From assembly GCA_040005235.1 (NCBI GenBank), contig JBDTZG010000002.1, positions 1 through 64,000 of the forward strand: DNA of 64,000 bases, given 5' to 3'. Positions 11,520 to 64,000 of this stretch are shown one piece after another. Position numbers and translations under genes: made by a program. The notes under the pieces are model-generated. The model saw only the letters and a list, made by a program, of their open reading frames with translations. It was not told the origin of the DNA and did no database searches. Within the stretch, counting starts at the first letter, position 1. The number at the start of each line of letters is the position of its first letter. The stretch is from Acidobacteriota bacterium. Lineage in GTDB: Bacteria > Acidobacteriota > Thermoanaerobaculia > Multivoradales > UBA5704.

Positions 11520-12643
11520 CGCGGCGCGCCTTCGATCGCCTGAAGGTAGACGCCGAGCGTTTGCTCCGCCGCCCGCTCCCAGCGGAACGCCTCGGCGCGC
11601 GCCCGGCCTCGTTCGATCAGGCGGACGCGATGGTCCGGATCGGTCATGCAGCGCGCGATCGCCTGGGCGATCGCATCGAGATCGAGCGGGTCGACCAGAT
11701 GGCCGTAGCCGTTGGCGACCTCGCGCAGCGCCGAAGTGTTCGAGGTGATCACCGGAACGCCCGAAGCCATCGCTTCCACCACCGGCAGGCCGAACCCCTC
11801 GTACAGCGTGGGATAGAGGAATACCGCGGCACCCTGGTAGAGCGCGGCTAGGTCTTCGAATTCGACGTGGCCGAGCAGCTTCACCCGGTCGCCGAGGCCC
11901 AGCTGCTCGGCGCGCTGGCGGATGCGCGACTCGCCGGGCGTCCGGTCGCCGACGCAGACCAGCGGCGCGTCGAAGTTCGCGAGCCGACGCGCCCGGGCGT
12001 ACGCCTTCACCACGTTGTCGAGGTTCTTGTGCGGTTTCGGGTTGCCGACGAACAGCAGGTAGGGGCGCTCGATGCCCAATGCCGAGAGCCGACGGCCGAT
12101 CTCGTCGGGCGCAAGGCGCTGGCGGAAGCGTTCCTCCACCCCGTTGTAGATCACTTCGATCTTGCCGCCGTCGACGTCGAAATAGTCGATCAGATCCTGA
12201 CGCGTGTTTTCCGACACCGCGATGATCCGGTCGCCTCGCTCGAGGCTCCTGCGGATCATCCGGGTGGCGTAGACGAACGCGAGCCCGTTGGGCAGAAACT
12301 CAGGGTAGAGCACGTGGATGATGTCGTGGATCGTCACCACCACCTTGGACGGCACGTAGGCGGGCAGGACGTAATGGGTGGCGTGGTAGAGATCGGGACG
12401 GAGCCGGAACAGCCGCCACGAAAGGGTCGCCATCTCGCGGATCGAGTAGACCCCGGCGCGCTCGGTGACCGCGGTGAAGTTTTCCGGCAGGGTGGCGAGC
12501 AGCTCGCGATCGTCGTCCTGCGCGAGCAGCAGGTAGCGGTTGTCCCGATCGATCGCCGCCAGCCCCGAGATCAGGTTTCGGACGTAGGTGCCGATACCGA
12601 AATCTCGGATCTTTCGGGCGTCTAGGGCGATCGTATAGGGCAC
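11516..12643 (-). CDS. Glycosyltransferase family 4
   Basis: GIGTY, TIHD, KPHKN, YEGFGLPVVEAMASG. Confidence 0.92.
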   Translation of the reverse strand: MPYTIALDARKIRDFGIGTYVRNLISGLAAIDRDNRYLLLAQDDDRELLATLPENFTAVTERAGVYSIREMATLSWRLFRLRPDLYHATHYVLPAYVPSKVVVTIHDIIHVLYPEFLPNGLAFVYATRMIRRSLERGDRIIAVSENTRQDLIDYFDVDGGKIEVIYNGVEERFRQRLAPDEIGRRLSALGIERPYLLFVGNPKPHKNLDNVVKAYARARRLANFDAPLVCVGDRTPGESRIRQRAEQLGLGDRVKLLGHVEFEDLAALYQGAAVFLYPTLYEGFGLPVVEAMASGVPVITSNTSALREVANGYGHLVDPLDLDAIAQAIARCMTDPDHRVRLIERGRARAEAFRWERAAEQTLGVYLQAIEGAPR

Positions 12644-12674
12644 GCGGCAGGGGCTCCGGGGCAGACCAACAGGA

Positions 12675-13847
12675 TCAAGAGTTTATCGCGTCGGCGAAGA
12701 TCGCATCCATCCGGTCCGCCGCGCCGCCCCAGGTGAAGCGGGCGGCCTGCGCCGGGCCGCGGTCGGCAAGCTCTTGGGCCCGCCCCGGATCGGCGAGCAG
12801 CCGGCCGAGCGCCTCGGCGAGCGCCGCGGGCTCGCCGATCTCGACCTGGAGCCCCGCTCGGCCTACCACCTCGGGCAGGCTCGACCGATTCGACACGATG
12901 GTTGGCACGCCGCAGGCGAGCGCCTCGGCCGCCGGCAGGCCGAAGCCTTCATAGAGCGAGGGGTAGAGGAAGACCGAGGCGGCCTGAAAAATCCGCACCA
13001 GCCGCGCGCGGGGCACGGGACCCAGGTGGATCAACCCTTTGGGCTTGAGCGCCTCGATCCGTTCGAGCAGCTTGGGGCCGCCCCAGCCGTTCGGACCGAC
13101 CAGGACGAGCGGCGGGGTGGCGCCACGATCGCCGCCACCGAGTCCCACGAGGCCGCCGCGCTCGACCAGGAACTCCCAGGCATCGAGGATCGCGCCGACG
13201 TTCTTGCGCGGCTCCAACGTCCCGGCATAGAGAAGATAGCCGTCCGGCGCGCCGATCTCTTCGCGGGTTGCGGCGATTTCCTCGGCGGTGCCGGGGCGAA
13301 ACTCGGGATCGACGCCCGGATAGATCACCTCGACCCGGTCGGCGCAGTCGGGAAAATGAAACCGCAGATCGGCCGCCGTCGCCTGGGAATCCGCGACGAT
13401 CCGCCGGGCGCGATCGAGCGAGGCGTTGAGGAACGGATAGACGCTCCAGCGAACCTTCACCCGATGATGGTCGGGAAACAGCAGGGTCGTGAGGTCATGG
13501 ACCGTCGCGATCGCCGGCACCGGACAGCGAAGCGGCAACGTCATGTGCGGCGACCAGAGCAGGTCGACGTCCCCCGCCGCGAGCCGCTTCGGCAGCCGCA
13601 GCTGCTGCCAGATCACGCCGAGGGGAGCCGGCTGGATCTCGATCGGAACTTCCGCCCCGGCGAATTCCTCCGCTCCTTCGACCGGGCCGTGCGCGAGCCC
13701 CAGATAGCGCCGATGGCTCCGACCCCGGCGGCTCGCCAGCTCCAGCAGCAGCGACCGGGTGTAGACGCCGATGCCGGTTACCGTCCGCACCAGCGGGCGA
13801 AGATCGACGGCAACGGTAGGAAGAGACGAGGGGGAGACTTCGGACAT
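12675..13847 (-). CDS. Glycosyltransferase family 4
   Basis: TGIGVY, TVHD, GTLEPRKN, YEGFGLPAAEALACG. Confidence 0.9.
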   Translation of the reverse strand: MSEVSPSSLPTVAVDLRPLVRTVTGIGVYTRSLLLELASRRGRSHRRYLGLAHGPVEGAEEFAGAEVPIEIQPAPLGVIWQQLRLPKRLAAGDVDLLWSPHMTLPLRCPVPAIATVHDLTTLLFPDHHRVKVRWSVYPFLNASLDRARRIVADSQATAADLRFHFPDCADRVEVIYPGVDPEFRPGTAEEIAATREEIGAPDGYLLYAGTLEPRKNVGAILDAWEFLVERGGLVGLGGGDRGATPPLVLVGPNGWGGPKLLERIEALKPKGLIHLGPVPRARLVRIFQAASVFLYPSLYEGFGLPAAEALACGVPTIVSNRSSLPEVVGRAGLQVEIGEPAALAEALGRLLADPGRAQELADRGPAQAARFTWGGAADRMDAIFADAINS

Positions 13848-13861
13848 GCGAGCCGATGGTA

Positions 13862-14704
13862 TCAGGGGCTTTTGGGGGCCGGCTTGAATAGAGCCCGAAA
13901 CGCCTTCAACGCCGCCGGGTGGTAGATCGTACCGTGCCCTTCCGCGGGCGTCGGCTCGTAGATCCAGCGCAAGTCTGCGGAAGCGTTCTGCTTGAGCGCC
14001 TCGACCAACTGCTCGGTCGGCTTGACGATCCCTTTCTCGTCGCTGGTCGCGAGAAAGAGCGTGCCTTTCCCTTTGTACTCCTTCAATCGCCCGGGGGCAG
14101 AGCTCACCAACGCCTGGTGATTCCACCAGAGGCTTGGATCGAACGCGATCGAGGTATCGAACATCCCGGGCGCCAGGAAGAACGTCTCGACGACGAACAG
14201 CCCGGCGAGCGACTCGCCGACGATTCCCGTCTCGTCCGTCGTGCGGTAGCGCGCCCGCACGTCCGGCATCAGCTCCTTGGCGATGAACTCCCGGAACGCG
14301 GCGGAGCCGCCCACGTGCGGCGCGATCTTCCGGTCTTCCGGGTCTTCGGTCGGACCGGTCATGTCGCGGCGACGCTCGGTGTTTTCGATCCCCACCAGGA
14401 CGAACGGCCGCATCGTGCCGTTGCCGACCGAGACCTGGACCAGCCCGGCGACGTGCAAAAAGTCCTCGCCCATCCCGCCGTCCGGCATGTAGAGGACGGG
14501 GAAGCGGGCGTCCTTGGCGGCGTCATAGCCGGGCGGAAGGTAGACATTGATCCGCCGCGTCTCGTGGAGAATCTTCGACGGAATCGCGAATGTCTCTCCG
14601 ATCGAAAGCGGGGCCGCCGAAGTACCCGATCCTTCGCCGGCAAGCGATGCCGAGAGGGGCGGGCAGAGGACCGAGAGAGCTAGAACGGCGGCGAGTTTCT
14701 TCAT
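13862..14704 (-). CDS. Secreted alpha/beta hydrolase (IroE-like esterase)
   Basis: Signal peptide; PVLYMPDG, GESLAG nucleophile elbow, PSLWW. Confidence 0.85.
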   Translation of the reverse strand: MKKLAAVLALSVLCPPLSASLAGEGSGTSAAPLSIGETFAIPSKILHETRRINVYLPPGYDAAKDARFPVLYMPDGGMGEDFLHVAGLVQVSVGNGTMRPFVLVGIENTERRRDMTGPTEDPEDRKIAPHVGGSAAFREFIAKELMPDVRARYRTTDETGIVGESLAGLFVVETFFLAPGMFDTSIAFDPSLWWNHQALVSSAPGRLKEYKGKGTLFLATSDEKGIVKPTEQLVEALKQNASADLRWIYEPTPAEGHGTIYHPAALKAFRALFKPAPKSP

Positions 14705-14818
14705 TGGCGCCCGATCGTACCAGCACGAAACCGTGCCTTGTCGCTCGCGGGAGGAAGCGCGACACGATCGTTCGGCAGTCCTGATACACCTTCCCCACCG
14801 GGCCTTTGACGATGGGTC

Positions 14819-16798
14819 TCAACGCGTCCCGCCGCGGAAGGCCCAAAAGGGATCGGGTTCGAGGAGCGGGCGCGAATCGGGGAGGATTTCGAAGACTTGG
14901 GCTTCCTCGTCGGCAAAGGTCAGCCGCACCGGGGCTCGACGGGGCCATCGTTCGATCTCTCGCCGCTGCCAGCGGCGCAAATCGGCAAGACGGGCGACCA
15001 CGTGAGTCACTCCTTCGGCGCGCAGCCGGGCGAGATCGGCATCGTCGGGCACCGGAAAGCAACACCTTCGGCGCAGGTCGAGATTGTCGGTCGGTAGAAA
15101 GCCGCTGTAGCCGTTGACCACCGGCTTGCCGTAGTGGCTCGCGCGGTACATCGTGGGGATGTCGTCCTGCACCCGGCCGAGCGGGACTTCAAGAACCGCC
15201 CGCACCGCGGAGGTTTTCGCGAGCCATTGATCGACCGCGGTGGGGCCGAGCCTGGGCTCGATCTCGGTCCAATCGAGCCGCCGCGGCGCCTGTTCGATCG
15301 CCAGCAAGACAATCACTCCGGCGGCAAACCCACGGCGCAAGGTGATCGAGGAGAGGCGCTCGCGGAGGCGATCGAAACCGTAGGCGGCAAGAAATCCGAG
15401 CCCAACGCCGGCAAAGGCATAGAACCGGGTAGGCACCCGCATCTGGGCGAGGCCGGGAACGTAGCGGGCGAGCGGCAGGTAGACCTGGGGAAAGGTAAGG
15501 AGGAACGAGGCCGCACCGGCCGCGAGGAGACCGCGGGGCCACGCCGGCAGATCCGCCCAGCCGGCCAGAGCTGCGGCACTCTTCCCTCGCCACTTTCGGC
15601 GCAGGAAGGCTGCACTCGCCGATGCAACCAGCAGGATCAGGCCCAAGGCCGAATAGCTCGGCAAGTTCCTGGTTCCCCACGGTACGCCGGGCCATCCGCT
15701 CCAAGTTCTCGCGTCGGCGACGAGAAACGTAAGCCCCACCAAAGCGGTCAACAGCCCGAGGATGACGCGATGCCCTTTCCCTGGAAGGGGAGCTGCTGGC
15801 CTGCAAAACCGCCGCAGCCCTTCCCACGCTCCCCAAAGGGCGAAAAGGGCAACGCCGAAGCCCGGGAAGAGCGCGTTCTCCGGTCGTTCCCAGCGGGCGG
15901 TTTCAGCTCCGCCATAGAGAGAGTGCTGGGACGACGGGGTGACATAGCTCGCGAGGGTGGCCGAGTACCCTGCGATTACATCGTCTCCTCTGTGCAGGGG
16001 GAAGTGAGCGGAGGTTCGCGCATAGGGGAGGAAAAAGATTGCCGCGATGCCCGCGCAGGCGATGAGGGCACCACCCAAGCGGGCGAGATCAGCGCGGCTC
16101 CAGCGAGGCCGGTCGCGGAAAAGGAGGCGGTTCGCGGCCAGGATCGCGAGGGGTATATGGGCCATGTAGGCGAGGTAGAGGCCGCCGCTCATATGAAGGG
16201 CATAGAAGGCGACGAAGATCGCGGCGCGCCGCAAGGTCGGACGTTCGAGCAACCGGTCGAACGTCCAGAGCAGCGGCGGAATCCAGAGGGCAAGCAGGAT
16301 TTGAAGATGGCTCCCCTGGAACCATCGGAACGCGGAGAACGCGAACGCCAGACCGCCGATCCAGGCGCCGGTCGGGCTCAGGCCGCTCTTGTCCAGAACC
16401 CAGTAGAGGGCGAAGGCGGATCCGAGGTATGAGCCGAAGAACAACAGGTTGTAGAACGCGATCGGGCCGACCCCGAAGTGCCCGAGCAGCCAGCCCGCAA
16501 ACGCCGGGCCGAGCAGGTGATCGGAAAACGTCGTGACTCGGAGGGTGGGAAAAAAGTACGGCAGATTCCAGTAGCCCTTGAAGCCGTTCTGAAAATGAAG
16601 AATTCCCCACTTGAGGACCACCAAATTGAACAGAGGATCTCCTCCGTCGGGGGCCAGGTGAGTGCGGAACACCCGCCAGATCGGGCGCAAATAGAACAGG
16701 GAGAGGGCGAGAAAGCCCAAGAACGCCAAGCCGTGCCGAGCCAGGCGTTGGCCCACCTTGGACCTGGCACCCTCCGGCCTTCGAAAATCGGTCATCAC
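14819..16798 (-). CDS. Multi-TM membrane protein, GT-C/YfhO-like glycosyltransferase
   Basis: GDPLFN, many hydrophobic segments, MRVPTRF, VNGYSG. Confidence 0.65.
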   Translation of the reverse strand: MMTDFRRPEGARSKVGQRLARHGLAFLGFLALSLFYLRPIWRVFRTHLAPDGGDPLFNLVVLKWGILHFQNGFKGYWNLPYFFPTLRVTTFSDHLLGPAFAGWLLGHFGVGPIAFYNLLFFGSYLGSAFALYWVLDKSGLSPTGAWIGGLAFAFSAFRWFQGSHLQILLALWIPPLLWTFDRLLERPTLRRAAIFVAFYALHMSGGLYLAYMAHIPLAILAANRLLFRDRPRWSRADLARLGGALIACAGIAAIFFLPYARTSAHFPLHRGDDVIAGYSATLASYVTPSSQHSLYGGAETARWERPENALFPGFGVALFALWGAWEGLRRFCRPAAPLPGKGHRVILGLLTALVGLTFLVADARTWSGWPGVPWGTRNLPSYSALGLILLVASASAAFLRRKWRGKSAAALAGWADLPAWPRGLLAAGAASFLLTFPQVYLPLARYVPGLAQMRVPTRFYAFAGVGLGFLAAYGFDRLRERLSSITLRRGFAAGVIVLLAIEQAPRRLDWTEIEPRLGPTAVDQWLAKTSAVRAVLEVPLGRVQDDIPTMYRASHYGKPVVNGYSGFLPTDNLDLRRRCCFPVPDDADLARLRAEGVTHVVARLADLRRWQRREIERWPRRAPVRLTFADEEAQVFEILPDSRPLLEPDPFWAFRGGTR

Positions 16799-16873
16799 GG
16801 AGTCTTTACGGAACTGCGGCTGTTGCGTCTAGCCCTTGGGATGAATGGCTGGCGGGAGGGGATGGAAGCGGCG

Positions 16874-55812: not shown

Positions 55813-55885
55813 GATGCCCTCCTTTGTTGAACGTGCAGCCCGAAATGGACTCGCACAACTGAAACCGTTCTTCACCGAAATGACT

Positions 55886-56095
55886 CTTCCCTCCGGCGGG
55901 ATCGCCCTTCCCTCCAGCGGGATCGCTCTTCCCTCCAGCGGGATCGCTCTTCCCTCCAGCGGGATCGCACTTCCCTCCAGCGGGATCGCTCTTCCCTCCA
56001 GCGGGATCGCTCTACCCTCCAGCGGGATCGCTCTACCCTCCGGCGGGATCGCCCTTCCCTCCGGCGGGATTGGTCTTCCCTCCCGCGGAATCGCT
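55886..56095. repeat. 10 x 21-bp tandem repeat (CTTCCCTCCAGCGGGATCGCT)
   Basis: Ten contiguous near-identical units with no spacers. Confidence 0.95.
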
Positions 56096-56521
56096 CTTTC
56101 ATCCCCCTTCCTTCTTGCTTCCGGGTCGGGTTCCTTCCGACGCCGGAGACCCTAGCAAACGGCCCGCGCGCTTCCGGGCCTGGGCCACTTTGGTAAGATC
56201 TAGAGTTACACCTAGAGGGTATCCCTCACTCTGTGGGGGTGTTCCGCTGGTGCGGCCTCCTACCCGAGGTGGAATTCCCCCACGCCGCAACGATCCAGAG
56301 CGGTTTCCGAGAAATCGAGCAAAAAGGGGTTTCGGGCGAAGATTTCTACCTGAGGGCCGTCGAAGTCCGAGAATGCGCCCTCGCGAGTGGGGATGCGAGG
56401 GTCCCGGATTGAGGCAGCGAAAGCCGGAAATTTCCGGTCAAACCATCATGAATGATGTCGGCCCGGGGCTTCTAACCAGCGACGAGGAGTTCTTTCGGCA
56501 ACAAGCGAGATTGCGTTCCCC

Positions 56522-56995
56522 TTAGCTTCGGTCTCTCGTCCTTGGCTTCTTGACAGGAGCTTTCCCACGCCTTCTCTTCGGCAGGAGGAGCTGCGGCGGC
56601 GGGCCGAGGAGGTCTTCGATTTTCGAGAGATCGCGATCGAGATCCCTGATCAACTCGGTGGCAACCTGAATCAACCGCTTCCGATCCAAAATGGAGTCAT
56701 TCTCTTCGAGGTTCGACACGGCCTCGTTGAGCCCTTCCCGCGAGTGGCGAAGATCCGCAACTAACGCTCGGAGATGCACTTTCGGCCAGGGCTCCCCGTC
56801 GTCGCCGCCTTCTTTCTCCAGTTCCAGCAATCGATCGGCAACGGCCTCGGTCAGTACGGCCAGCTTCGCGCGAAGCTCCGGATCGGCGAAGTGGCACAAC
56901 ACCGCTTCGCGAAACGGCGCCAGCTCGCGCCAGCGGCTTCCTTTCACCACCTCCAGATCGAGGACCACCTGGAACTTGACGACTTCGGGCTTCAT
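56522..56995 (-). CDS. Hypothetical helical protein with basic C-terminus
   Basis: ATGA overlap with the upstream gene; third gene of a coupled operon. Confidence 0.65.
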   Translation of the reverse strand: MKPEVVKFQVVLDLEVVKGSRWRELAPFREAVLCHFADPELRAKLAVLTEAVADRLLELEKEGGDDGEPWPKVHLRALVADLRHSREGLNEAVSNLEENDSILDRKRLIQVATELIRDLDRDLSKIEDLLGPPPQLLLPKRRRGKAPVKKPRTRDRS

Positions 56996-57372
56996 GAGGA
57001 TCGACGACTCCTTTGCGCCATTCGATGGCGGCGCTGCTCATGTACGAGGCAGAAAAATGCGCCAGGGTTCGCGGCGCCTTGTCTCATCAACGCGGCGAAA
57101 ATCCGAAGCTTCGCTTGCGAGCCTGGCGGTGGCCCGTTCTTCAACAGTTCGAGCAGCCGGTCGGCCAGATCGGGAAGCAATCTGCCTCGTCCTTGCAGGA
57201 GAAGGATGGCCCCCAGCTCGAAGTAGGCGTCGGTGGCGAGAAAGGCCTCGCCGGTCGCGCCCCAATTTGCCGCGGACCGACCGAAGAGCCTCGCGGCGTC
57301 TTCCAGCCGGCCTTGATCGCGCGCCGCCTCGGCGCGGGCGAAGGTTTCCTCGGCATCCTGGGGGGACTTCAT
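56992..57372 (-). CDS. Stand-alone TPR-like protein
   Basis: MKSPQD start overlaps the upstream stop (ATGA); AEAARDQGRLEDAARLF...LGAILLLQGR. Confidence 0.65.
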   Translation of the reverse strand: MKSPQDAEETFARAEAARDQGRLEDAARLFGRSAANWGATGEAFLATDAYFELGAILLLQGRGRLLPDLADRLLELLKNGPPPGSQAKLRIFAALMRQGAANPGAFFCLVHEQRRHRMAQRSRRSS

Positions 57373-57818
57373 GCCGAGCGCTCCAAGCCCTTCCGATGGG
57401 CGCGCACGTCCGCGAGCAGCTCCCACAGGAAGTGCGAATCCGGCGGGGTGATGTCGATCAAGACCAGAATGTCGAGAAAGAGGTCGGCCACGTCGGGCGC
57501 GACGGTAAGAGCGCTCGGCCGATCGACGATCCAGTCCGGCAGGTCGAAACCTTCCAGGCGATAGACCGCGGCGAGCGCGAGGGTGGCCAAACCTTCGAGC
57601 CAGGGCAGTCCGGAATTGCCGAAACCGTGAGCCGCGATGAGGAATGCTTCCTCCGCCCGGGCCAGGTCCCCCGTCACAGCGGCGCGCTCGGCAAGTTCCA
57701 TGGAGCGCCACGCAAGGCGGAAAAAGGGCGAACGCGCCGGAAGCGAGGTCGGCGCATCCGCGAGCCCCTCGGGCACGAGAGGAGGTGCGAGACGCCCGAG
57801 GGTGGATGGAGGGTCCAT
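57369..57818 (-). CDS. Stand-alone TPR-like protein
   Basis: RLAW...TGDLARAEEAFL...GLATLALAAVY; start uncertain (57818 or 57836). Confidence 0.55.
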   Translation of the reverse strand: MDPPSTLGRLAPPLVPEGLADAPTSLPARSPFFRLAWRSMELAERAAVTGDLARAEEAFLIAAHGFGNSGLPWLEGLATLALAAVYRLEGFDLPDWIVDRPSALTVAPDVADLFLDILVLIDITPPDSHFLWELLADVRAHRKGLERSA

Positions 57819-57981
57819 GTCCGACAGCCTAAGCACGGATGCGGAAGTTTCAGCCGGGGAGCTCGGTAAGGTCCTGAAATTGGCCGTGAGGATGGATATT
57901 TCCGCTTCGCGAAATCTCGCCTGCTTCTCTCTGTCGCGAATGGTGTAACCTCACTATCAAAACGCTTTCGGAGACCACCAG

Positions 57982-59451
57982 ATGCCGAAATCGAAGGACC
58001 AACTCTTCCCGCCGCTCGGCGTTGCGCTCCACTACCTGCGCACGATCGCCAAGATCTCGCGAGAAGACTTCGGGCGCCCCTTGGGCCTGCCTTCGAAGAC
58101 CATTTCGGATTACGAATCGGGACACCGAACGCTCGGACGGAAGCTGGCGGAGCAGCTGCTCTCAGCGCACGGCATCGAGCCGCAGGCGCTCGACGAGGTG
58201 CTCGCCGACATCAGCGCCCGCCGAAGCGTGATTTTTCCCGAAGGGACGTTCCCCCTGCCGCCCGAGGAGCTGCATCGGCTCGCCCGCGAGGGGCGGGAAA
58301 TCTCGCGTGCCATCGTTTCGGAGGTGGCGCGGTTGCGCCGAAGGGATCGCGCCCGGGCGGACCACGCCCTGGCGGGCGAGCTGTTCGAGCAGCTCGCGGG
58401 CTCAACACCCCACCAGCGATGGCTGTTCGTGACCCGCGCCGAGAAGTTCCGGCTCTGGGCACTGTCGGTTCGATTCGGAGAAGAGAGTACGAAGGCCGCG
58501 TCGGCCGACACCGACCGTGCGGCCGAGTACGCGACGCTCTCCCTGCGCATCGCCCGGCTCGCGCCGGCTGCGCCCAAGTTTCGTGCGCTGCTCGAAGGGC
58601 AGGCCTGGGCGTTCCTGGCGAACGGCCGGCGGGTCAAGGGATATCTGCCCAAGGCCGACCTGGGCTTCGCCCGATCGGCCCGGCTCTGGCAGGAAGGGGA
58701 GGGTGGCGATCCCGACCGGCTGCTCGATCCGACGCGACGGCTCGACCTCGAAGCTTCGCTGCGCCTGGACCAGGGCCGGCTGGACGAGGCCCTAGAGTTG
58801 CTCGACCGCGCGCTCGCCGAGGGACCGCAAGGAGTTGTGGCAGGGCGTCGACTGGTCCAGAAGGCGTTTGTGTTGGAACGGTACGGTCAACCGGAGGCGG
58901 CGCTCAGCGCATTGGACGACGCTGAAATGAGGGGCGCCGGACTCGACCCTCAGTTGGGTGCCTGGATCGTCGGCAACCGGGCCGTCAACTTTTGCCATCT
59001 CGGTCGCTTCGAAGAGGCCGCGGTCATCGTTCCCGTAGTCCGTACCCTGGCGATCGAGCTGCGTAACACGATCGACCTCGTGCGGGTGGATTGGCTGGAG
59101 GCCCGCGTCCTCGCCGGCCTCGGCCGGATCGAAGAGGCGATCCTGAAGCTCCGCTCGGTGAAGCAGGAGTTCAGCGCGCAGGGCGATTCCGTCGATACGG
59201 CGCTGGCGTCGATCGACCTCGCGGCTCTTCATCTCGATCGAGGGCAGCCGCGTTTCGCGCGGGAGTTGGCCGCCGACGTGGCGAAGCTGCTCGATGTGCA
59301 GGGGGTCCCCCGCGACCTGCTCGCCGCGCTGATCCTGTTCGTCCAGGCGCTCGAACAGGAACGGGCAACCGCGGCGGCGGCGCGCGATCTCATTCGAGCC
59401 CTCGAACGACGCCGACCGATCGAATCGACATCTTTGGCGGAAGAGAAGTGA
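57982..59451 (+). CDS. XRE-family HTH regulator fused to TPR-like repeats
   Basis: ALHYLR...SREDFG...TISDYESGHR; repeats DQGRLDEALELL, YGQPEAALSAL, LGRFEEAA, LGRIEEAI. Confidence 0.85.
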   Translation: MPKSKDQLFPPLGVALHYLRTIAKISREDFGRPLGLPSKTISDYESGHRTLGRKLAEQLLSAHGIEPQALDEVLADISARRSVIFPEGTFPLPPEELHRLAREGREISRAIVSEVARLRRRDRARADHALAGELFEQLAGSTPHQRWLFVTRAEKFRLWALSVRFGEESTKAASADTDRAAEYATLSLRIARLAPAAPKFRALLEGQAWAFLANGRRVKGYLPKADLGFARSARLWQEGEGGDPDRLLDPTRRLDLEASLRLDQGRLDEALELLDRALAEGPQGVVAGRRLVQKAFVLERYGQPEAALSALDDAEMRGAGLDPQLGAWIVGNRAVNFCHLGRFEEAAVIVPVVRTLAIELRNTIDLVRVDWLEARVLAGLGRIEEAILKLRSVKQEFSAQGDSVDTALASIDLAALHLDRGQPRFARELAADVAKLLDVQGVPRDLLAALILFVQALEQERATAAAARDLIRALERRRPIESTSLAEEK

Positions 59452-59482
59452 TCTCTCCATTCGGCCGGCACTCCCAAGAGCA

Positions 59483-59503
59483 CGTAGGGGCTCCGCCCCT
59501 ACG
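59483..59503. terminator. Hairpin between the convergent regulator and peptide genes (GTAG REP-like)
   Basis: CGTAGGGGC-TCC-GCCCCTACG. Confidence 0.55.
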
Positions 59504-59555
59504 GACAGCGAGCACTTCGGATCTCGGAGTTCCGGCAGGGCAAGTTTGGCCGCGG

Positions 59556-59861
59556 TTACGGCTTGCATCTCCCGTCGGGGTCGAAAGCGCAGCCGCTGTC
59601 TACCGGCGCGGGCGCCGTGCCGCAGCGGCCGTTGGGATCGAAACCGCAGCCGCCTTCTACCGGAGCGGGCGCCGCGCCGCAGCGGCCGTTGGGATCGAAA
59701 CCGCAGCCGCTTTCGGCCCAAAGCGAAGAGAGGACGCCCCGGAGCCAGCCGCCGAAGTCCCAGGGGATCGGAACCGCGGCGGCCGGCGCGGCGGCCGAAA
59801 GCAGGGCGATCAAAGCGGCGGCGAGGGGCAGGACGGACGCCCGAGAACGAAACGTAGACAT
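59556..59861 (-). CDS. Secreted repeat-peptide precursor with three C[GA]FDP[ND]GRC cores
   Basis: SD AAGGAG; Sec signal ending APAAA; 57-bp (19-aa) repeat period. Confidence 0.85.
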   Translation of the reverse strand: MSTFRSRASVLPLAAALIALLSAAAPAAAVPIPWDFGGWLRGVLSSLWAESGCGFDPNGRCGAAPAPVEGGCGFDPNGRCGTAPAPVDSGCAFDPDGRCKP

Positions 59862-60014
59862 CGAAAATCTCCTTTTCCAAGGCGCCGTCTACGCCGGCCG
59901 GGACGGCAGGCGCCTGCGCCCTGGCGGAGTATGGAGCGGCCCAGAGTGGAAATCTCCATCGGAACGCCTCGTGGCGGCACGTTTCCTCTTCCAGCCGGGC
60001 GCTAACGAGGCGGC

Positions 60015-60791
60015 ATGACCGATTTCGGGATCGCGGTAGGTTTCCTTCGATCGCTCCGCGGCTGGAGCCGCGAGCAGGTGGCTCGCGCCGCCGGCCTACA
60101 TGCCTCATCGATCGGCCGTCTGGAAAATGGGCGCCGCCCGCGCCCGGGGACGCCGGAGAGGATTCGCAGGGCGTTCGGCCTTTCGCTCGCGACCTGGCAA
60201 CGACTGCTCGACCTGATCGCCGATTGTCGCCATGAGATGTCGTTGGGCTCAGCCCTCGATCCTTCGACCGAGGCGGATCCCCTCGAAGAGACGCTTTCGA
60301 TCCTCGTTCCGCGGATTCTCGCGGCGTTGACGGCACTCCCGTCGGCCTCGGTCAAGGCTACCCCTCCTCCACTCCCCGCCGCCGCCGATCGCAGGCGGGC
60401 CGACGAGCTTTGGGGACGGCTTCGGCCCTTGAGCATGGCGGACCGGAGGGAGTTGATCGCGGTGGGCGAGGAATATTCCTGCTGGGCGCTCGCCGAGCGG
60501 CTCGCCCAAGAGAGCGAGAAGCTCGCGCTCGACCGTTCGGCGGAAGCGCTGGCGCTCGCGGGAATGGCCGATCGGATCGCCGAAACCGCTCCCATGCCGT
60601 CGCGCTTTCGCGCGCGACTGCGAGGCTTGACCACCGCCTATCTGGGTTACGCAAGGCGGGTCGCAGGCCACCTTGAGGGAGCCGAAGCAGCTTTCCGCAG
60701 GTCGGACGAGCTTTGGACGTCGGGAGCCGGGGGCGATCCCGCCGGGTCGCTCGACGACTCCCGGCGGCTTGCCCTTAAGACAAAGCATTAG
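60015..60791 (+). CDS. Short XRE-HTH/TPR-like paralogue lacking the C-terminal TPRs
   Basis: LRSLRGWSREQVARAAGL...IGRLENG; WALAERLAQESEK and GGDP..LD..RRL align with 57982..59451. Confidence 0.8.
   Translation: MTDFGIAVGFLRSLRGWSREQVARAAGLHASSIGRLENGRRPRPGTPERIRRAFGLSLATWQRLLDLIADCRHEMSLGSALDPSTEADPLEETLSILVPRILAALTALPSASVKATPPPLPAAADRRRADELWGRLRPLSMADRRELIAVGEEYSCWALAERLAQESEKLALDRSAEALALAGMADRIAETAPMPSRFRARLRGLTTAYLGYARRVAGHLEGAEAAFRRSDELWTSGAGGDPAGSLDDSRRLALKTKH
60707..60785 (+). repeat. 79-bp direct repeat, copy 1
   Basis: About 69/79 identical (hand count) to 62189-62267. Confidence 0.85.
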
Positions 60792-60862
60792 CCCGAAGTT
60801 CTAGGGTCACGTAAGGCCGAGACGCTGGTGAAAGAGTGCCGCCGCACCGAAAGGGAGGAGCC

Positions 60863-62149
60863 GTGAGCCGAGTCGCAGTTTGCCACCTGCTTTGGGTCCT
60901 GGCGCTGCTCGGGTCACCTTCGGGCGCCCTGGCCGTCCTGTGTACGATCGACGACGTGCCGGCCGCGACGCTGTTGCTGCCGTACTTCGAGGTCGATTTG
61001 AACGACCCGAACGGGATAAATACCCTGATCTCGATCAACAACGCCTCGGCCGATGCGGTCCTGGCCCACGTGGTCCTCTGGACGGACACGTCGGTGCCTA
61101 CCTTCGATTTCAATCTCTATCTGACCGGTTATGACGCCCAGACCGTCAGCCTCCGCGACATCTTCAACGGCACGGTTCCGCTAACCGCCTCGGCGGGGCA
61201 GGACCCGGCGGACGCGATCAGTCCGAAGGGCACGTTCTCGCAGGACGTCAGTTTTGCGAGCTGCACCGGCCAACTGCCGCCGCCACCGATTCCCGATTCC
61301 ATCGTCACCCATCTTCGCGCGTCGCATACTGGGACGTTCTCGGCGATCCTGAACGGCTGCGCGGGTCGGGCCTTCGGCGACCGCATCGCTCGGGGCTATT
61401 TGACGATCGACACGGTCAGCAACTGCACCCTGCGCTTCCCGGGGGATGCCGGCTATTTCGCTTCCGGCGGCACGGGCGACGCGACGAACCAAAATGTCCT
61501 CTGGGGCGACTACATCTACCTCAGTCCGGGCGAGAACTTCGCCCAGGGCGAGACGCTCGTCCACGTGGAGGCCTCGGCCACGAATCCGGAGACCTCGGTT
61601 CCAGGTCAGTACACGTTCTATGGCCGATACGTGAACTGGACGGCGGCGGACAACCGCGAGCCGTTAGGGACGACCTTCGCCGCGCGCTACGTCAACGGCG
61701 GAAGGTTCACCGGGGGTACCGACTTGATCGTCTGGCGCGACTCGAAGGTCGACCAAAGCGCGTTCCGGTGCGGATATTTGCCACCCTGGTATCCGCTCGC
61801 CGAAGAGCGGCTCGTGGTTTTCGACCAGCAGGAGAATGCGGAGCTGCAGCAGACGCCGCCTTTTTCGCCGCCGCCCGGAGGGGGCGATTGGCTGCTCCCT
61901 TTCCCGGCTGAGGCGCAGCGCACGGCGATTGACGGCGAAGATTTTCCGGTGTCGTTCAACTTCGGCTGGATCTACTTGGATCTGAACACCTTCGTGATCG
62001 CGGCCGGTTTCAACCCGGCGAAAGATCCGGCCGCGGAACAGGCCTGGGTGACGGTGGTGATGGACGCCTCCGGTCGGTTCAGCGTAGGGTACGACGCGAT
62101 TCAGCTCGACAGCGCCTGCCGCGTCGATCACACGCTGATCGGCGGCTGA
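60863..62149 (+). CDS. Secreted Cys-containing beta-rich hypothetical protein
   Basis: SD GGGAGG, GTG start, signal peptide, CTIDDVPAATLLLPYFEVDL, QNVLWGDY, FGWIYLDLN. Confidence 0.8.
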   Translation: MSRVAVCHLLWVLALLGSPSGALAVLCTIDDVPAATLLLPYFEVDLNDPNGINTLISINNASADAVLAHVVLWTDTSVPTFDFNLYLTGYDAQTVSLRDIFNGTVPLTASAGQDPADAISPKGTFSQDVSFASCTGQLPPPPIPDSIVTHLRASHTGTFSAILNGCAGRAFGDRIARGYLTIDTVSNCTLRFPGDAGYFASGGTGDATNQNVLWGDYIYLSPGENFAQGETLVHVEASATNPETSVPGQYTFYGRYVNWTAADNREPLGTTFAARYVNGGRFTGGTDLIVWRDSKVDQSAFRCGYLPPWYPLAEERLVVFDQQENAELQQTPPFSPPPGGGDWLLPFPAEAQRTAIDGEDFPVSFNFGWIYLDLNTFVIAAGFNPAKDPAAEQAWVTVVMDASGRFSVGYDAIQLDSACRVDHTLIGG

Positions 62150-62188
62150 AACCGCGCCGAAATCACCGGCGCGGTCGCTTCAGGCCTT

Positions 62189-62267
62189 CGAGCTCTGGAC
62201 GTCGGGAGCCGGGGGCAATCCCGCCGGACTGCTCGACGGGTCCCGGCGGCTTGCCCTGAGGGCAAAG
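62189..62267 (+). repeat. 79-bp direct repeat, copy 2 (remnant of an XRE-TPR 3' end)
   Basis: Translates ELWTSGAGGNPAGLLDGSRRLALRAK. Confidence 0.85.
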
Positions 62268-62476
62268 GGACTCCCAGGAGAGGAAGTCACGAGGCTCGCG
62301 GATTCTCTCAGCGCCTAAGGGCTGAAGGCGAAAGCAGGTCAGGAATGGCGGGGACCTCGGGGGCCGTCGAAAGCCTTCGGCCCGCCATCGGTTCAGTCAG
62401 CCTCCGCGGCTGGCCGCAGGACACCCTGGCCCATGAGGAACCGAATCTCGGCGAGATTTGGCGCTATTCTTTTTCC

Positions 62477-62644
62477 ATGGACGCGCCCGATTACCTGATG
62501 TGCCTGGAGTGCGGCAGCCCTTGCTACGTCTTCGAATGGGAGGGGGAGCGGCTGGTCGAAGCGGTTTGTGCCGCCTGCGGCAATGAAGATCTGCCCCTGT
62601 TCGTCACCCCGGAGGAGTTCGAAGAACAGATGACGGGGGGGTGA
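62477..62644 (+). CDS. Small Zn-ribbon protein
   Basis: CLECGSPC...CAACGN. Confidence 0.65.
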   Translation: MDAPDYLMCLECGSPCYVFEWEGERLVEAVCAACGNEDLPLFVTPEEFEEQMTGG

Positions 62645-64000
62645 GGGGGCGGCTTCCGCCGACACCGCCGACACCGCTGAACCTCGGCGCGGGGAGCGGC
62701 GCGGCTTCAGTGCCGGGTACGGCGAGGGGCAGCAGCACGGTGACCGTCGTTCCTTGGTTCGGATCGTTCGGCCGGCTGTCGATCCGCACCGAGCCGCCGT
62801 GCGCCTTGGCGATCCGGTCGACGATCGCCAGACCTAGGCCGGTCCCCCCTTTGCGGGTCGAATAGAAAAGGTCGAAGATCTTCGGCAGCTCGTCGGCCGG
62901 AATGCCGATCCCGTTGTCGGAGACCGCGACCGCCACCTGCCGTCCGTCCGTCCGCTCCGATCGCCCCGGCTCGGCGAAGTCGACGGTGAGCGCGAGCAAG
63001 GGCCGCCGGGAGAGCTCCTCGGTGGCGCCCAGGGCGTTTTGCGCGAGATTCAAAAGCAGCTGGGTCATCTGGCTCGGGTCGACGCTGATGAGCGCACCGC
63101 CCGAACGGTCCTCCACCCGCACCTGGGCGCCCCGGCGTTGGATTTCGCCGCCGAGGATCTCCGCCACCTTCTCGCAAAGGGCGACCGCAGGCATCTCGGT
63201 CCGGTCCAGCGCGCGCGGCTTCGCATAGGAAAGGAAGTCGGTCACGAGGCGCTCCAAGCGGCCGATCTCGGAGCGGGTGATCGCGAGCAGGCGTTTGCCC
63301 GTCGATGCCCCCGACCGGTCGTCGATCTCCTCCTCCAGCATCTGCATGTTGAGGCTCAGCGAGTTGAGCGGGTTCCTGATCTCGTGAGCGAGGCCTGAGG
63401 CAAGCGTGCCGATGTAAGCGAGCCGTTCGGCTTCTGCGGCCTGAACTTCCAGGCGCCGGGCGCGCCGCAGCAGGGTGAGGATGATCGCGTAGGCCGAGCC
63501 GATCAGGGCGATCGTGAGAGCGCTGATCAAGCCGGTCTGGCGGATCAGCTCGGAGCGCAGCGAGCGGGTCCGCTTCGCCAGCTCGCTCTGGGAGATGCCG
63601 ATCTCGATCACCCCGAGCGAGCCGATCGGCACCCGCACGTTCGGTGCGTCGGCCGAAGCAGCGGTGGGCGAGGTCACCGGTGCCTCGAAACGGCGTTCGG
63701 TGACCCGCCGCCGCGGGGCACCGCGCGGCAACTCGGCCGAGCCGAGGAGAGGGCCGCGCGGGTCGAACAGTTGCGTTCGCCGCTGGTCGCGCAGCACCAA
63801 GACGCCGTTCTTGTCGCGGATTTCGACCGTGCGCACGATGTCGCGCCGTGCCAGGATCGAGTCGATGTAGGTCTGAGTCTCCTGCTCGACCGCGACCGCG
63901 GTGAACAGATTCTTGTGGATCTCGGCGTTCTTGGCGATCTGCTGGGCCAAGTTTTCCGCCTCGGTTCGGGTCTCGACCAGCGCGCGCTGGATCTCCCTTT
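62604..64000 (-). CDS. Sensor histidine kinase (5' end outside the window)
   Basis: TM, LAHEIRNPL, LLNLAQNA, DNGIGI, GTGLGL. Confidence 0.93.
   Translation of the reverse strand, partial: REIQRALVETRTEAENLAQQIAKNAEIHKNLFTAVAVEQETQTYIDSILARRDIVRTVEIRDKNGVLVLRDQRRTQLFDPRGPLLGSAELPRGAPRRRVTERRFEAPVTSPTAASADAPNVRVPIGSLGVIEIGISQSELAKRTRSLRSELIRQTGLISALTIALIGSAYAIILTLLRRARRLEVQAAEAERLAYIGTLASGLAHEIRNPLNSLSLNMQMLEEEIDDRSGASTGKRLLAITRSEIGRLERLVTDFLSYAKPRALDRTEMPAVALCEKVAEILGGEIQRRGAQVRVEDRSGGALISVDPSQMTQLLLNLAQNALGATEELSRRPLLALTVDFAEPGRSERTDGRQVAVAVSDNGIGIPADELPKIFDLFYSTRKGGTGLGLAIVDRIAKAHGGSVRIDSRPNDPNQGTTVTVLLPLAVPGTEAAPLPAPRFSGVGGVGGSRPLTPPSSVLRTPPG

Follow-up and report, generated by a model that had tools for sequence, protein, structure and literature searches.

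Peptide signalling via cytoplasmic tetratricopeptide repeat (TPR) receptors is regarded as a trait of Gram-positive bacteria, that is, of the Bacillota. In the available text of the articles that treat them, the RRNPP(A) systems are placed in this phylum (PMC10075063, PMC9765709, PMC11343458), and signals of other phyla are described, in the available part of one of these articles, as enzyme-made small molecules (PMC10075063). A full-text literature search, confined to the accessible portions of the articles, returned Bacillota work only and no such report for Acidobacteriota; supplementary files might list RRNPP-like cases outside Bacillota. Here we analysed a stretch of 64,000 nucleotides, referred to as the window, which comprises positions 1–64000 of contig C8 in an Acidobacteriota genome of 6.22 Mb (140 contigs, 66% G+C). 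The sequencing runs listed as containing this DNA are metagenomes of soil, root and rhizosphere, which may be its source, with no RNA run among them. At 57982–60791 it carries a cassette of three genes, in which a small secreted repeat peptide is encoded between two paralogous regulators of the XRE helix-turn-helix (HTH) type, named A and B in the following. From sequence, structural model and analogy we hold it to be probable, if narrowly so, that this cassette is a peptide-ligand/TPR-receptor switch working like RRNPP systems, whereas we make no claim that it belongs to the RRNPP family.

The secreted repeat peptide and its linkage to regulator genes

The peptide precursor gene (59556–59861, minus strand) was delineated from the list of open reading frames (ORFs), the sequence itself, family alignments, 21 paralogues and a logo of 320 units. 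The original prediction had described a 101-aa ORF with a Shine-Dalgarno sequence, a signal peptide, an amphipathic segment and three CxFDP[ND]GRC units, and exactly this sequence is present. AAGGAG sits 7 nt ahead of the ATG, and the translation starts with MSTFRSRAS followed by the signal-like segment LPLAAALIALLSAAAPAAA, so that basic residues are succeeded by an Ala/Leu-rich hydrophobic stretch up to AAA, which by sequence constitutes a Sec-type signal peptide (approximately aa 1–29). The conserved amphipathic pro-segment VPIPWDFGGWLRGVLSSLWAE (aa 30–50) is followed by three [DE]-x-G-C-x-x-D-P-x-G-R-C units (aa 51–101), in the order ES-GCGFDPNGRC, EG-GCGFDPNGRC and DS-GCAFDPDGRC, with APAPV linkers in between; the unit types are CGFDPNGRC and ESGCGFDPNGRC, while other cassettes of the genome have, for instance, MIDPNG and DPVG types. 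On the DNA level, the units are encoded by a 57-nt tandem repeat of 2.5 copies with 90% matches (59572–59711, minus strand). Removal of the signal peptide would leave a product of 72 aa, and a Pfam scan gave no family match for the 101-aa precursor. The gene layout proposed originally could likewise be confirmed from coordinates and Pfam: the peptide gene is convergent with the 489-aa XRE-HTH+TPR gene of regulator A (57982–59451, plus strand) and divergent from the gene of its 258-aa paralogue, regulator B (60015–60791, plus strand).

Among the 79,781 ORFs of the window's genome, a hidden Markov model (HMM) of the peptide family identified 21 peptide ORFs at E<1e-3, and a regulator-family ORF lies within 400 nt of all 21. 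This regulator family comprises 107 ORFs of the genome, obtained from three jackhmmer rounds and with some generic TPR and HTH proteins among them; by our own arithmetic, approximately 4% of the genome lies within 400 nt of one of these 107 ORFs. In 15 of the 21 cassettes the layout is A-> <-peptide B->, while in 6 the peptide gene precedes a TPR gene in the same orientation. The nearest paralogous cassette to that of the window is found on contig C10, with identities of 67% for A, 59% for B and 68% for the peptide. Beyond this genome, the family HMM matches 31 of 41 genomes, including 24/24 others of the same family and 6/16 from other families of the order, with 1–49 peptide matches in each of the 24 same-family genomes. 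A phylum-wide sample yielded a marginal match in 1 of 300 other genomes, in a thinner search in which 15 candidates were scored per genome.

Regulator genes stand beside the peptide in 18 of 19 loci examined in 19 other genomes, the exception being a 2-kb contig end. A further 100 loci, taken from the best-scoring rows of the family HMM and therefore biased to Cys-type peptides, contain 109 peptide ORFs. The distance to a regulator-family ORF is at most 700 nt for 108 of these; 104 are accompanied by a convergent full-length A and 88 by a divergent B. In other families of the order (5 genomes, 4 families), all 15 peptide ORFs, mostly Cys-less, are followed by a co-directional gene whose product matches the regulator profile in its TPR part only, and Pfam agreed on this for the 8 of the 15 out-of-family partners that were scanned. 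Linkage of DPNG-peptide ORFs to XRE-TPR genes had been set beforehand as the test on which the original prediction could fail, and we observed it in 21/21, 18/19, 108/109 and 15/15 cases. Since 62 homologues and 21 genomic paralogues exist and all 21 adjoin a regulator-family gene, the linkage is, as judged by sequence comparison, far beyond chance, and we are dealing with a family rather than a single locus.

In a protein database search with the window peptide, 190 candidates were obtained; 76 proteins reached E<=10 and 62, with the window's own included, E<1e-3. Where these homologues are named, the name is 'hypothetical protein' of Thermoanaerobaculia, a class of Acidobacteriota. All members follow a common plan, in which the signal peptide is succeeded by an amphipathic segment with the conserved pattern LW..L..LW and by 1–6 tandem units. 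In a set of 130 ORFs, a signal-peptide-like N-terminus was assigned to 116 by a simple N-terminal rule devised for this analysis, and the conserved pro-segment is found in 102. The 320 Cys-first units of these ORFs give the logo [DE]-x-G-C-x1-[IL]-D-P-x5-G-[RG]-C, in which variability is greatest at x1 (3.3 bits) and x5 (3.0 bits). The acidic residue noted earlier ahead of each core recurs as D/E at position -3 in 216/320 units; that it acts as a cleavage signal is a conjecture. The closing Cys occupies the eighth position in 263/320 units and lies one position earlier in 31, so that paired Cys are present in 294/320, and it is absent in 26.

The C-X7-C ring, which the original prediction had proposed for the released peptides, does not represent the conserved feature, as shown by these 26 units and by Cys-less members that keep the same partners. 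The latter include GLEADPNGRP, GISIDPLGRP and IQIDGNG, and many of them end exactly in ...DPNG. Because such Cys-less members exist, the invariant core is, on the level of the alignments, a D-P-x-G turn with its preceding hydrophobic residue rather than the disulphide ring. Correspondingly, what remains constant across the loci compared is the pairing of a secreted repeat peptide of the x-x-D-P-x-G type with a cytoplasmic TPR domain, rather than the ring. Output domain, gene order and cysteines change around this pairing, and the peptide–TPR pair can therefore be considered the putative core of the system, with an apparently exchangeable output module.

Putative TPR receptors, output domains and peptide types

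Regulator A, the putative peptide receptor, was characterised from the ORF list, Pfam, a PDB profile search, AlphaFold2 (AF2) modelling and Foldseek. It comprises an XRE-type HTH (approximately residues 1–75), a long helix (94–139) and then about 7–8 TPR-like hairpins up to residue 476. Pfam matched TPR_5 at E 1.2e-5, with HTH_31 (4.9e-5) and HTH_3 (4.3e-4) below the cut-off, and a PDB profile search based on 36 homologues returned the HTH domains of ClgR, C.BclI and HipB (E 7e-7 to 1e-5) for residues 5–72, together with generic TPR proteins. No signal peptide or hydrophobic span was seen in the sequence of A, which places the protein in the cytoplasm. The AF2 model, calculated from a 36-row alignment, is all-helical with a mean confidence (pLDDT) of 89 and displays alpha-hairpins over residues 143–476. 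Top PDB matches of this model in Foldseek are superhelical TPR domains with a groove that accommodates extended peptides (LGN/Pins, from E 7.6e-6 upwards); the RapJ-PhrC complex 4gyo follows at rank 31 (E 3.1e-4, TM-score 0.59 on the target) and RapF at rank 40, leaving Rap (4gyo, 3ulq) as the sole RRNPP member among the matches at E<=0.001. In the Foldseek comparison, which had been suggested for the product of 57982–59451, the model, a long TPR superhelix, thus comes closest among solved structures to TPR domains that bind peptides, Rap-Phr included. The model fits a peptide-binding fold without singling out RRNPP receptors. Consequently, the analogy to RRNPP systems drawn at the outset stands as far as gene linkage and TPR superhelix are concerned, but specific kinship to RRNPP receptors was detected neither by the PDB profile search nor by Foldseek. 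Kinship with Streptomyces WhiJ-type regulators was considered as well and dropped, with only sub-threshold NCBIfam matches (NsdA family, E 0.003; Sco1979, 0.025).

Within the TPR part, N214, R217, N332, R368 and W371 are invariant in the 36 homologues of A, and the wider set of invariant or nearly invariant polar residues comprises N214, R217, R252, D255, E257, R261, N332, D365, R368, W371 and R375. They map to helices 198–219, 250–263, 323–339 and 363–379, i.e. four of five successive alternate helices, and would, from the model, line one face of the TPR array. For Rap-Phr, the accessible part of the structural report describes how the side chain of a conserved Asn binds to the main chain of the peptide, while a conserved Asp pairs with a conserved peptide Arg (PMC3601965). 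By analogy, conserved Asn and Arg residues of A facing the invariant D-P-x-G could constitute a comparable arrangement. Complex prediction for TPR residues 125–480 (36-row alignment) and the mature peptide 30–101 (10-row alignment) gave a score of 0.01 in a calculation without control runs, which speaks neither for nor against binding.

The co-directional TPR proteins contain no HTH. Their N-termini (19 sequences) feature invariant or nearly invariant H, H, C and C residues in the zinc-type motif H-x24-H-x3/4-C-x2-C, mostly H-x4-C-x2-C, within approximately 50 N-terminal residues that form three short helices. In the subsequent TPR part, a homologue of the corresponding region of A, the L-A-N-A-x-R motif contains an invariant Asn (N176) and a nearly invariant Arg (R179), which correspond to N214 and R217 of A in a comparison of the consensus lines. 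Pfam zf-HC2 matches to these N-termini are sub-threshold (E 0.016, 0.12 and 3.6). The AF2 model of the first 100 residues of one such protein shows four helices at a pLDDT of 88.9, and 11 of its 12 top Foldseek rows are anti-sigma factors (seven RslA 3hug chains, then RskA, MucA, RsiW and ChrR), all at E of at least 0.56. The alignment to RslA, at E 0.56 or worse, extends over 46 columns with 28% identity and 2.2 Å. On the strength of motif and model, we designate the N-terminal zinc-motif domain anti-sigma-like and a candidate member of the zinc anti-sigma factors. A gene for an extracytoplasmic function (ECF) sigma factor precedes 2 of the 17 anti-sigma-like TPR genes of the window's genome, both on contig C103. 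An ECF sigma factor as partner of the out-of-family cassettes was also considered, with none found in the 10 upstream ORFs tried. At the C103 locus (11850–16838), the sole site of the genome with anti-sigma-like TPR genes beside sigma factor genes, three matches to sigma-70 region 2 are interleaved with the genes of two anti-sigma-like TPR proteins and of a Cys-less repeat peptide of the IQIDGNG type.

From a FastTree phylogeny of 87 A proteins, calculated on their TPR parts, cassettes of different genomes fall into well-supported receptor clades, each with its own peptide type. In a clade of 17, the units read C-E-[IL]-x-P-D-G, with x1 = E in 31/43; x5 = V applies to 12/12 units in a clade of 4, and a clade of 6 has x5 = H in 15/18 and x7 = G in 17/18 units. 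Further clades show x1 = T in 15/16, x1 = I in 9/12 and x1 = G in 10/16 units. Within the V and H clades, whose receptors are 50–72% identical, x1 is as variable as in random draws (2.1 and 2.8 bits), a comparison which ignores relatedness. This pattern fits a situation in which different receptor clades constrain different peptide positions, as expected of a matching partner. The 14 placed cassettes of the window's genome span about nine receptor clades, several of them as recent paralogue pairs. For hydrophobic x5, only about six independent origins are present on the 87-leaf tree, too few against 356 receptor columns for column-wise covariation.

Regulator B, control regions and neighbouring sequence

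Regulator B, identified from the ORF list, Pfam (HTH_31, E 4.2e-11) and its alignment to A, is 31% identical to residues 12–257 of A and ends just past the G-G-D-P loop, after the first TPR-like hairpins. Since the B orthologues measure 258–274 aa, the short form appears to be kept at this locus; competitor, partner and decaying copy are the candidate roles of B.

Two regions around the cassette genes stand out by conservation. Upstream of A, the blocks GATATTTCCGCTTCGCGAAATCTCG (57895–57919) and CTGTCGCGAATGGTGTAACCTC (57931–57952), aligned on the plus strand, are kept in 6 related cassettes while their flanks diverge, and we assign 57895–57952 as the putative operator and promoter of A. The divergent control region between the peptide gene and B (59862–60014), delineated from alignment and inverted repeats, contains a GC-rich imperfect palindrome (59880–59915), GGAGTATGG (59926–59934) and the near-palindrome TGGAAATCTCCA (59947–59958), three elements which are kept in 4 related cassettes, and would, from this conservation, include an operator. 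The pattern GGAAATNTC, chosen after viewing the data, has 5 matches in the window where 2.0 are expected, a count reached by 3 of 100 shuffles. All five sites lie at 56426–59956, in or beside the cassette, with both conserved control regions included, and we regard this clustering as a lead only. The site at 56426 is a perfect palindrome, GGAAATTTCC, downstream of a 157-aa ORF. The operator word GAAATCTC showed no enrichment in the window (4 matches, 3.3 expected). In the 104-nt gap between the convergent genes of A and the peptide, a perfect 8-bp GC-rich hairpin, GTAGGGGC-TCC-GCCCCTAC, is located at 59484–59502 and represents a possible bidirectional terminator by its sequence. An intrinsic terminator scan of 57750–60900 returned no sites, the hairpin being unlisted because no T-run follows, a scan of the same range for sigma-70 consensus promoters returned none either, and an Rfam scan of 56000–63000 gave no matches.

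The end of B is interrupted by what we consider a later insertion (60707–62267, plus strand), a 1.48-kb segment between 79-nt direct repeats (60707–60785 and 62189–62267, 87% identical). Inside this segment lies the gene of a 437-aa secreted protein without a named family (60836–62149, plus strand). The repeats correspond to the 3' end of B, and the second copy runs on into a remnant of the original B tail, which ends at 62317 and resembles the tail of a B orthologue; we conclude that the 437-aa gene reached the end of B by insertion or by recombination there. It has six further matches in the genome at 41–81% identity (C56, C45, C79 twice, C42 and C103), while the protein gave no Pfam match and an atlas search returned unnamed Acidobacteriota clusters only.

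Upstream of A, a small ORF (56992–57369, minus strand) resembles the last helices of A (residues 379–475), a weak match at an hhalign probability of 47% and E 2e-4. Two further ORFs were tried as copies of A's tail and rejected, 57369–57836 (minus strand) at an hhalign probability of 2.9% and the 157-aa ORF at 56522–56995 (minus strand) at 1.8%. This 157-aa ORF, which has no family match, is also present ahead of A in five other modules of the genome at 38–61% identity (C8 at 187 kb, C79, C10, C59 and C76) and, by this recurrence, may be a further member of the cassette. About ten 21-nt tandem repeats occupy approximately 55870–56100, read in the ORF list as SGIALPS on one strand and as RSRWREE on the other. 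At one out-of-family locus (L033:3–755, plus strand), the N-terminus of a phage-type integrase (Arm DNA-binding domain, E 7e-12, and a SAM-like domain) is encoded just upstream of the peptide–TPR pair, which hints that some cassette copies may sit on mobile DNA.

Proposed switch, rival explanations and known systems

In the model that we propose, the locus is one copy of a signalling cassette which has expanded within the lineage. A repeat peptide, synthesised on ribosomes and exported via Sec, would serve as ligand for the cytoplasmic regulator encoded next to it, whose TPR domain would bind it. After export of the precursor, for which the signal peptide is evident by sequence, the conserved amphipathic pro-segment would be removed by machinery common to the paralogues, and the tandem [DE]-x-G-C-x1-x2-D-P-x5-G-R-C units would be freed as several short peptides per precursor. 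These peptides would re-enter the cytoplasm, plausibly via the single Opp/Dpp-type binding protein of the genome, and bind in the groove of the TPR superhelix of A, where the invariant Asn, Arg and Trp residues might hold the D-P-x-G backbone while variable residues read x1, x2 and x5. Binding would then alter the activity of A's HTH at the conserved boxes, both those ahead of A and those separating peptide and B, with B, as a shortened paralogue with the same HTH, modulating or competing at the same sites. In sister lineages and at other loci of the genome, the same TPR sensor is linked to the anti-sigma-like zinc-motif domain instead of the HTH. The sole SBP_bac_5 (Opp/Dpp-type) match of the genome is located at C8:64502–65602, 0.5 kb past the end of the window and 3.7 kb from the cassette, and by our own arithmetic the chance of such closeness to one of 21 cassettes in 6.2 Mb amounts to a few percent.

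However, several points weigh against a switch of this kind. Binding, processing, import and expression of any member are predicted only, and in a diderm Sec export reaches the periplasm only, while a disulphide ring would be reduced upon re-entry. Strong conservation of the pro-segment, as found in 102/130 ORFs, is unusual for RRNPP systems and could point to another role. On the receptor side, no RRNPP receptor chain was found among the best 60 of 147 matches at E<=1 in the PDB profile search with A, and with Rap at ranks 31 and 40, behind eukaryotic LGN and designed TPRs, the Foldseek result constitutes a generic fold match. A recognisable upstream peptide gene is present for only about 7 of the 17 anti-sigma-like TPR genes of the genome, and B differs among cassettes, from full-length copies to forms truncated at many different points. 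Regarding specificity, x1 and x2 drift among the orthologues of the window's own clade (GF, NA, AL, SV, DL, GW and others), in which receptors are 62–85% identical, and this free variation agrees poorly with a strict code for these two residues. Furthermore, a clade-wise peptide type is expected of any tightly linked genes and is by itself no proof of co-evolution.

Alternatively, the exported Cys-loop peptide could itself be the end product, for instance an antimicrobial, a metal- or calcium-binding or an envelope-associated peptide, with the XRE-TPR proteins only controlling its transcription on some other cue that the TPR domain senses. Exported effectors are typically recognised by such a combination of signal peptide, amphipathic helix and small disulphide loops, the conservation of the pro-segment suggests that this part has its own role, and the variability of x1 and x5 could reflect an arms race, while the drift of x1 and x2 among close orthologues would also suit such a product. 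We nevertheless consider this rather unlikely: no immunity, exporter or maturase gene was seen in the cassette, where the neighbours within 700 nt in 109 cases are regulator genes, and Pfam showed no such family among the window's neighbours. The link to the TPR domain moreover spans two output domains and two gene orders, which is not needed in a plain relation between promoter and regulator; for one kind of effector, as many as 49 private regulator pairs in a genome would be unusual, and the clade-specific fixation of single peptide positions fits a matching partner.

A ligand could also be sensed before it leaves the cell, if the TPR domain bound the unexported precursor or its C-terminal units and the regulator thereby reported synthesis or export flux. 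Such an intracellular partner switch would need neither an outer-membrane route nor re-import, TPR domains commonly bind extended or C-terminal peptides, and many Cys-less members terminate exactly at ...DPNG. Yet the signal peptide in 116/130 ORFs and the paired Cys in 294/320 units argue for action after export and oxidation, and tandem units are more easily explained by the dosage of a released product, which makes this alternative quite improbable. The last alternative, already raised in the original prediction, is a multi-core ribosomally synthesised and post-translationally modified peptide (RiPP), whose pro-segment would serve as leader for an enzyme encoded elsewhere and whose units would be cores modified chemically prior to or following export, with a product that may still signal. 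A conserved leader-like segment followed by 1–6 repeated cores with hypervariable positions matches RiPP logic, but neither Pfam nor NCBIfam revealed a maturase or enzyme family beside the window's cassette, and regulator genes flank the 109 cassettes, of which the immediate flanks were scanned. In addition, 21–49 precursors per genome would all rely on one remote enzyme, and a Sec signal peptide ahead of the leader is, to our knowledge, uncommon for bacterial RiPPs. We therefore judge a RiPP to be very improbable and retain the peptide-ligand/TPR-receptor switch as our preferred explanation.

A more far-reaching proposal is that Thermoanaerobaculia use a genetically encoded peptide language of independent origin from RRNPP, with up to 49 private channels per genome, each of a secreted multi-copy x-x-D-P-x-G peptide and its cognate cytoplasmic TPR sensor, with an XRE HTH for direct control of transcription or a soluble zinc anti-sigma domain for control via a sigma factor as output, and with a code at x1, x2 and x5; we regard this as conceivable but somewhat doubtful. 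If true, no earlier family of communication by peptides and cytoplasmic receptors would exist for a diderm phylum, and the finding would extend the principle to outer-membrane bacteria such as the soil and rhizosphere Acidobacteriota, raise the question of how peptides exit and re-enter the cell, and offer a handle on the social behaviour of an abundant, poorly cultured soil phylum. With hundreds of natural peptide–receptor pairs, two output modules and clade-fixed positions at hand, a specificity code becomes directly testable with synthetic peptides, and the family could supply possibly orthogonal peptide switches for synthetic biology.

The cassette shares with the HTH+TPR pairs of the RRNPP(A) systems (PlcR-PapR and NprR-NprX, as well as AimR-AimP, Rgg-SHP and PrgX) the cytoplasmic XRE-HTH with its TPR superhelix beside the gene of a Sec-exported propeptide and, additionally, the occurrence of many diverged paralogous pairs per genome. 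In Rgg-SHP systems, the peptide gene is divergent from the regulator gene, as is the case for peptide and B here. In contrast to these systems, however, the module described here consists of three genes with two paralogous regulators, and its precursor displays a conserved amphipathic pro-segment and 1–6 tandem Cys-closed units, while RRNPP(A) propeptides provide one C-terminal linear pheromone. The two also differ in range, with RRNPP(A) systems described in Bacillota and their mobile elements and all named homologues of the window peptide belonging to Thermoanaerobaculia, i.e. to diderm Acidobacteriota.

Rap-Phr offers a closer parallel to the second receptor class, since Rap is an HTH-less TPR receptor like the anti-sigma-like proteins, and several pheromone copies per propeptide are common to both; for the phage Rap systems of RRNPPA, tandemly duplicated pheromones in one propeptide are described in the available text of PMC11343458. 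The N-terminus of Rap is a three-helix bundle acting on response regulators, whereas its place is taken here by an XRE HTH or a zinc-motif anti-sigma-like domain, and the peptide gene, located downstream of the receptor gene in Rap-Phr, is convergent with or upstream of it in our cassettes. With the zinc anti-sigma factors (RslA, ChrR, RsiW; zf-HC2), the anti-sigma-like class has in common the H, H, C, C motif and the short helices, but 15 of its 17 genes lack an adjacent sigma gene, no membrane segment is present, and a cytoplasmic TPR sensor is combined with a secreted peptide.

Two further systems are comparable in design only. The precursor of yeast alpha-factor likewise consists of a signal peptide, a pro-region and spaced tandem copies of the signal, the proteins being unrelated, and in PatS-HetR of cyanobacteria a ribosomal peptide acts on a cytoplasmic DNA-binding protein in a diderm, as we propose for the cassette of the window.

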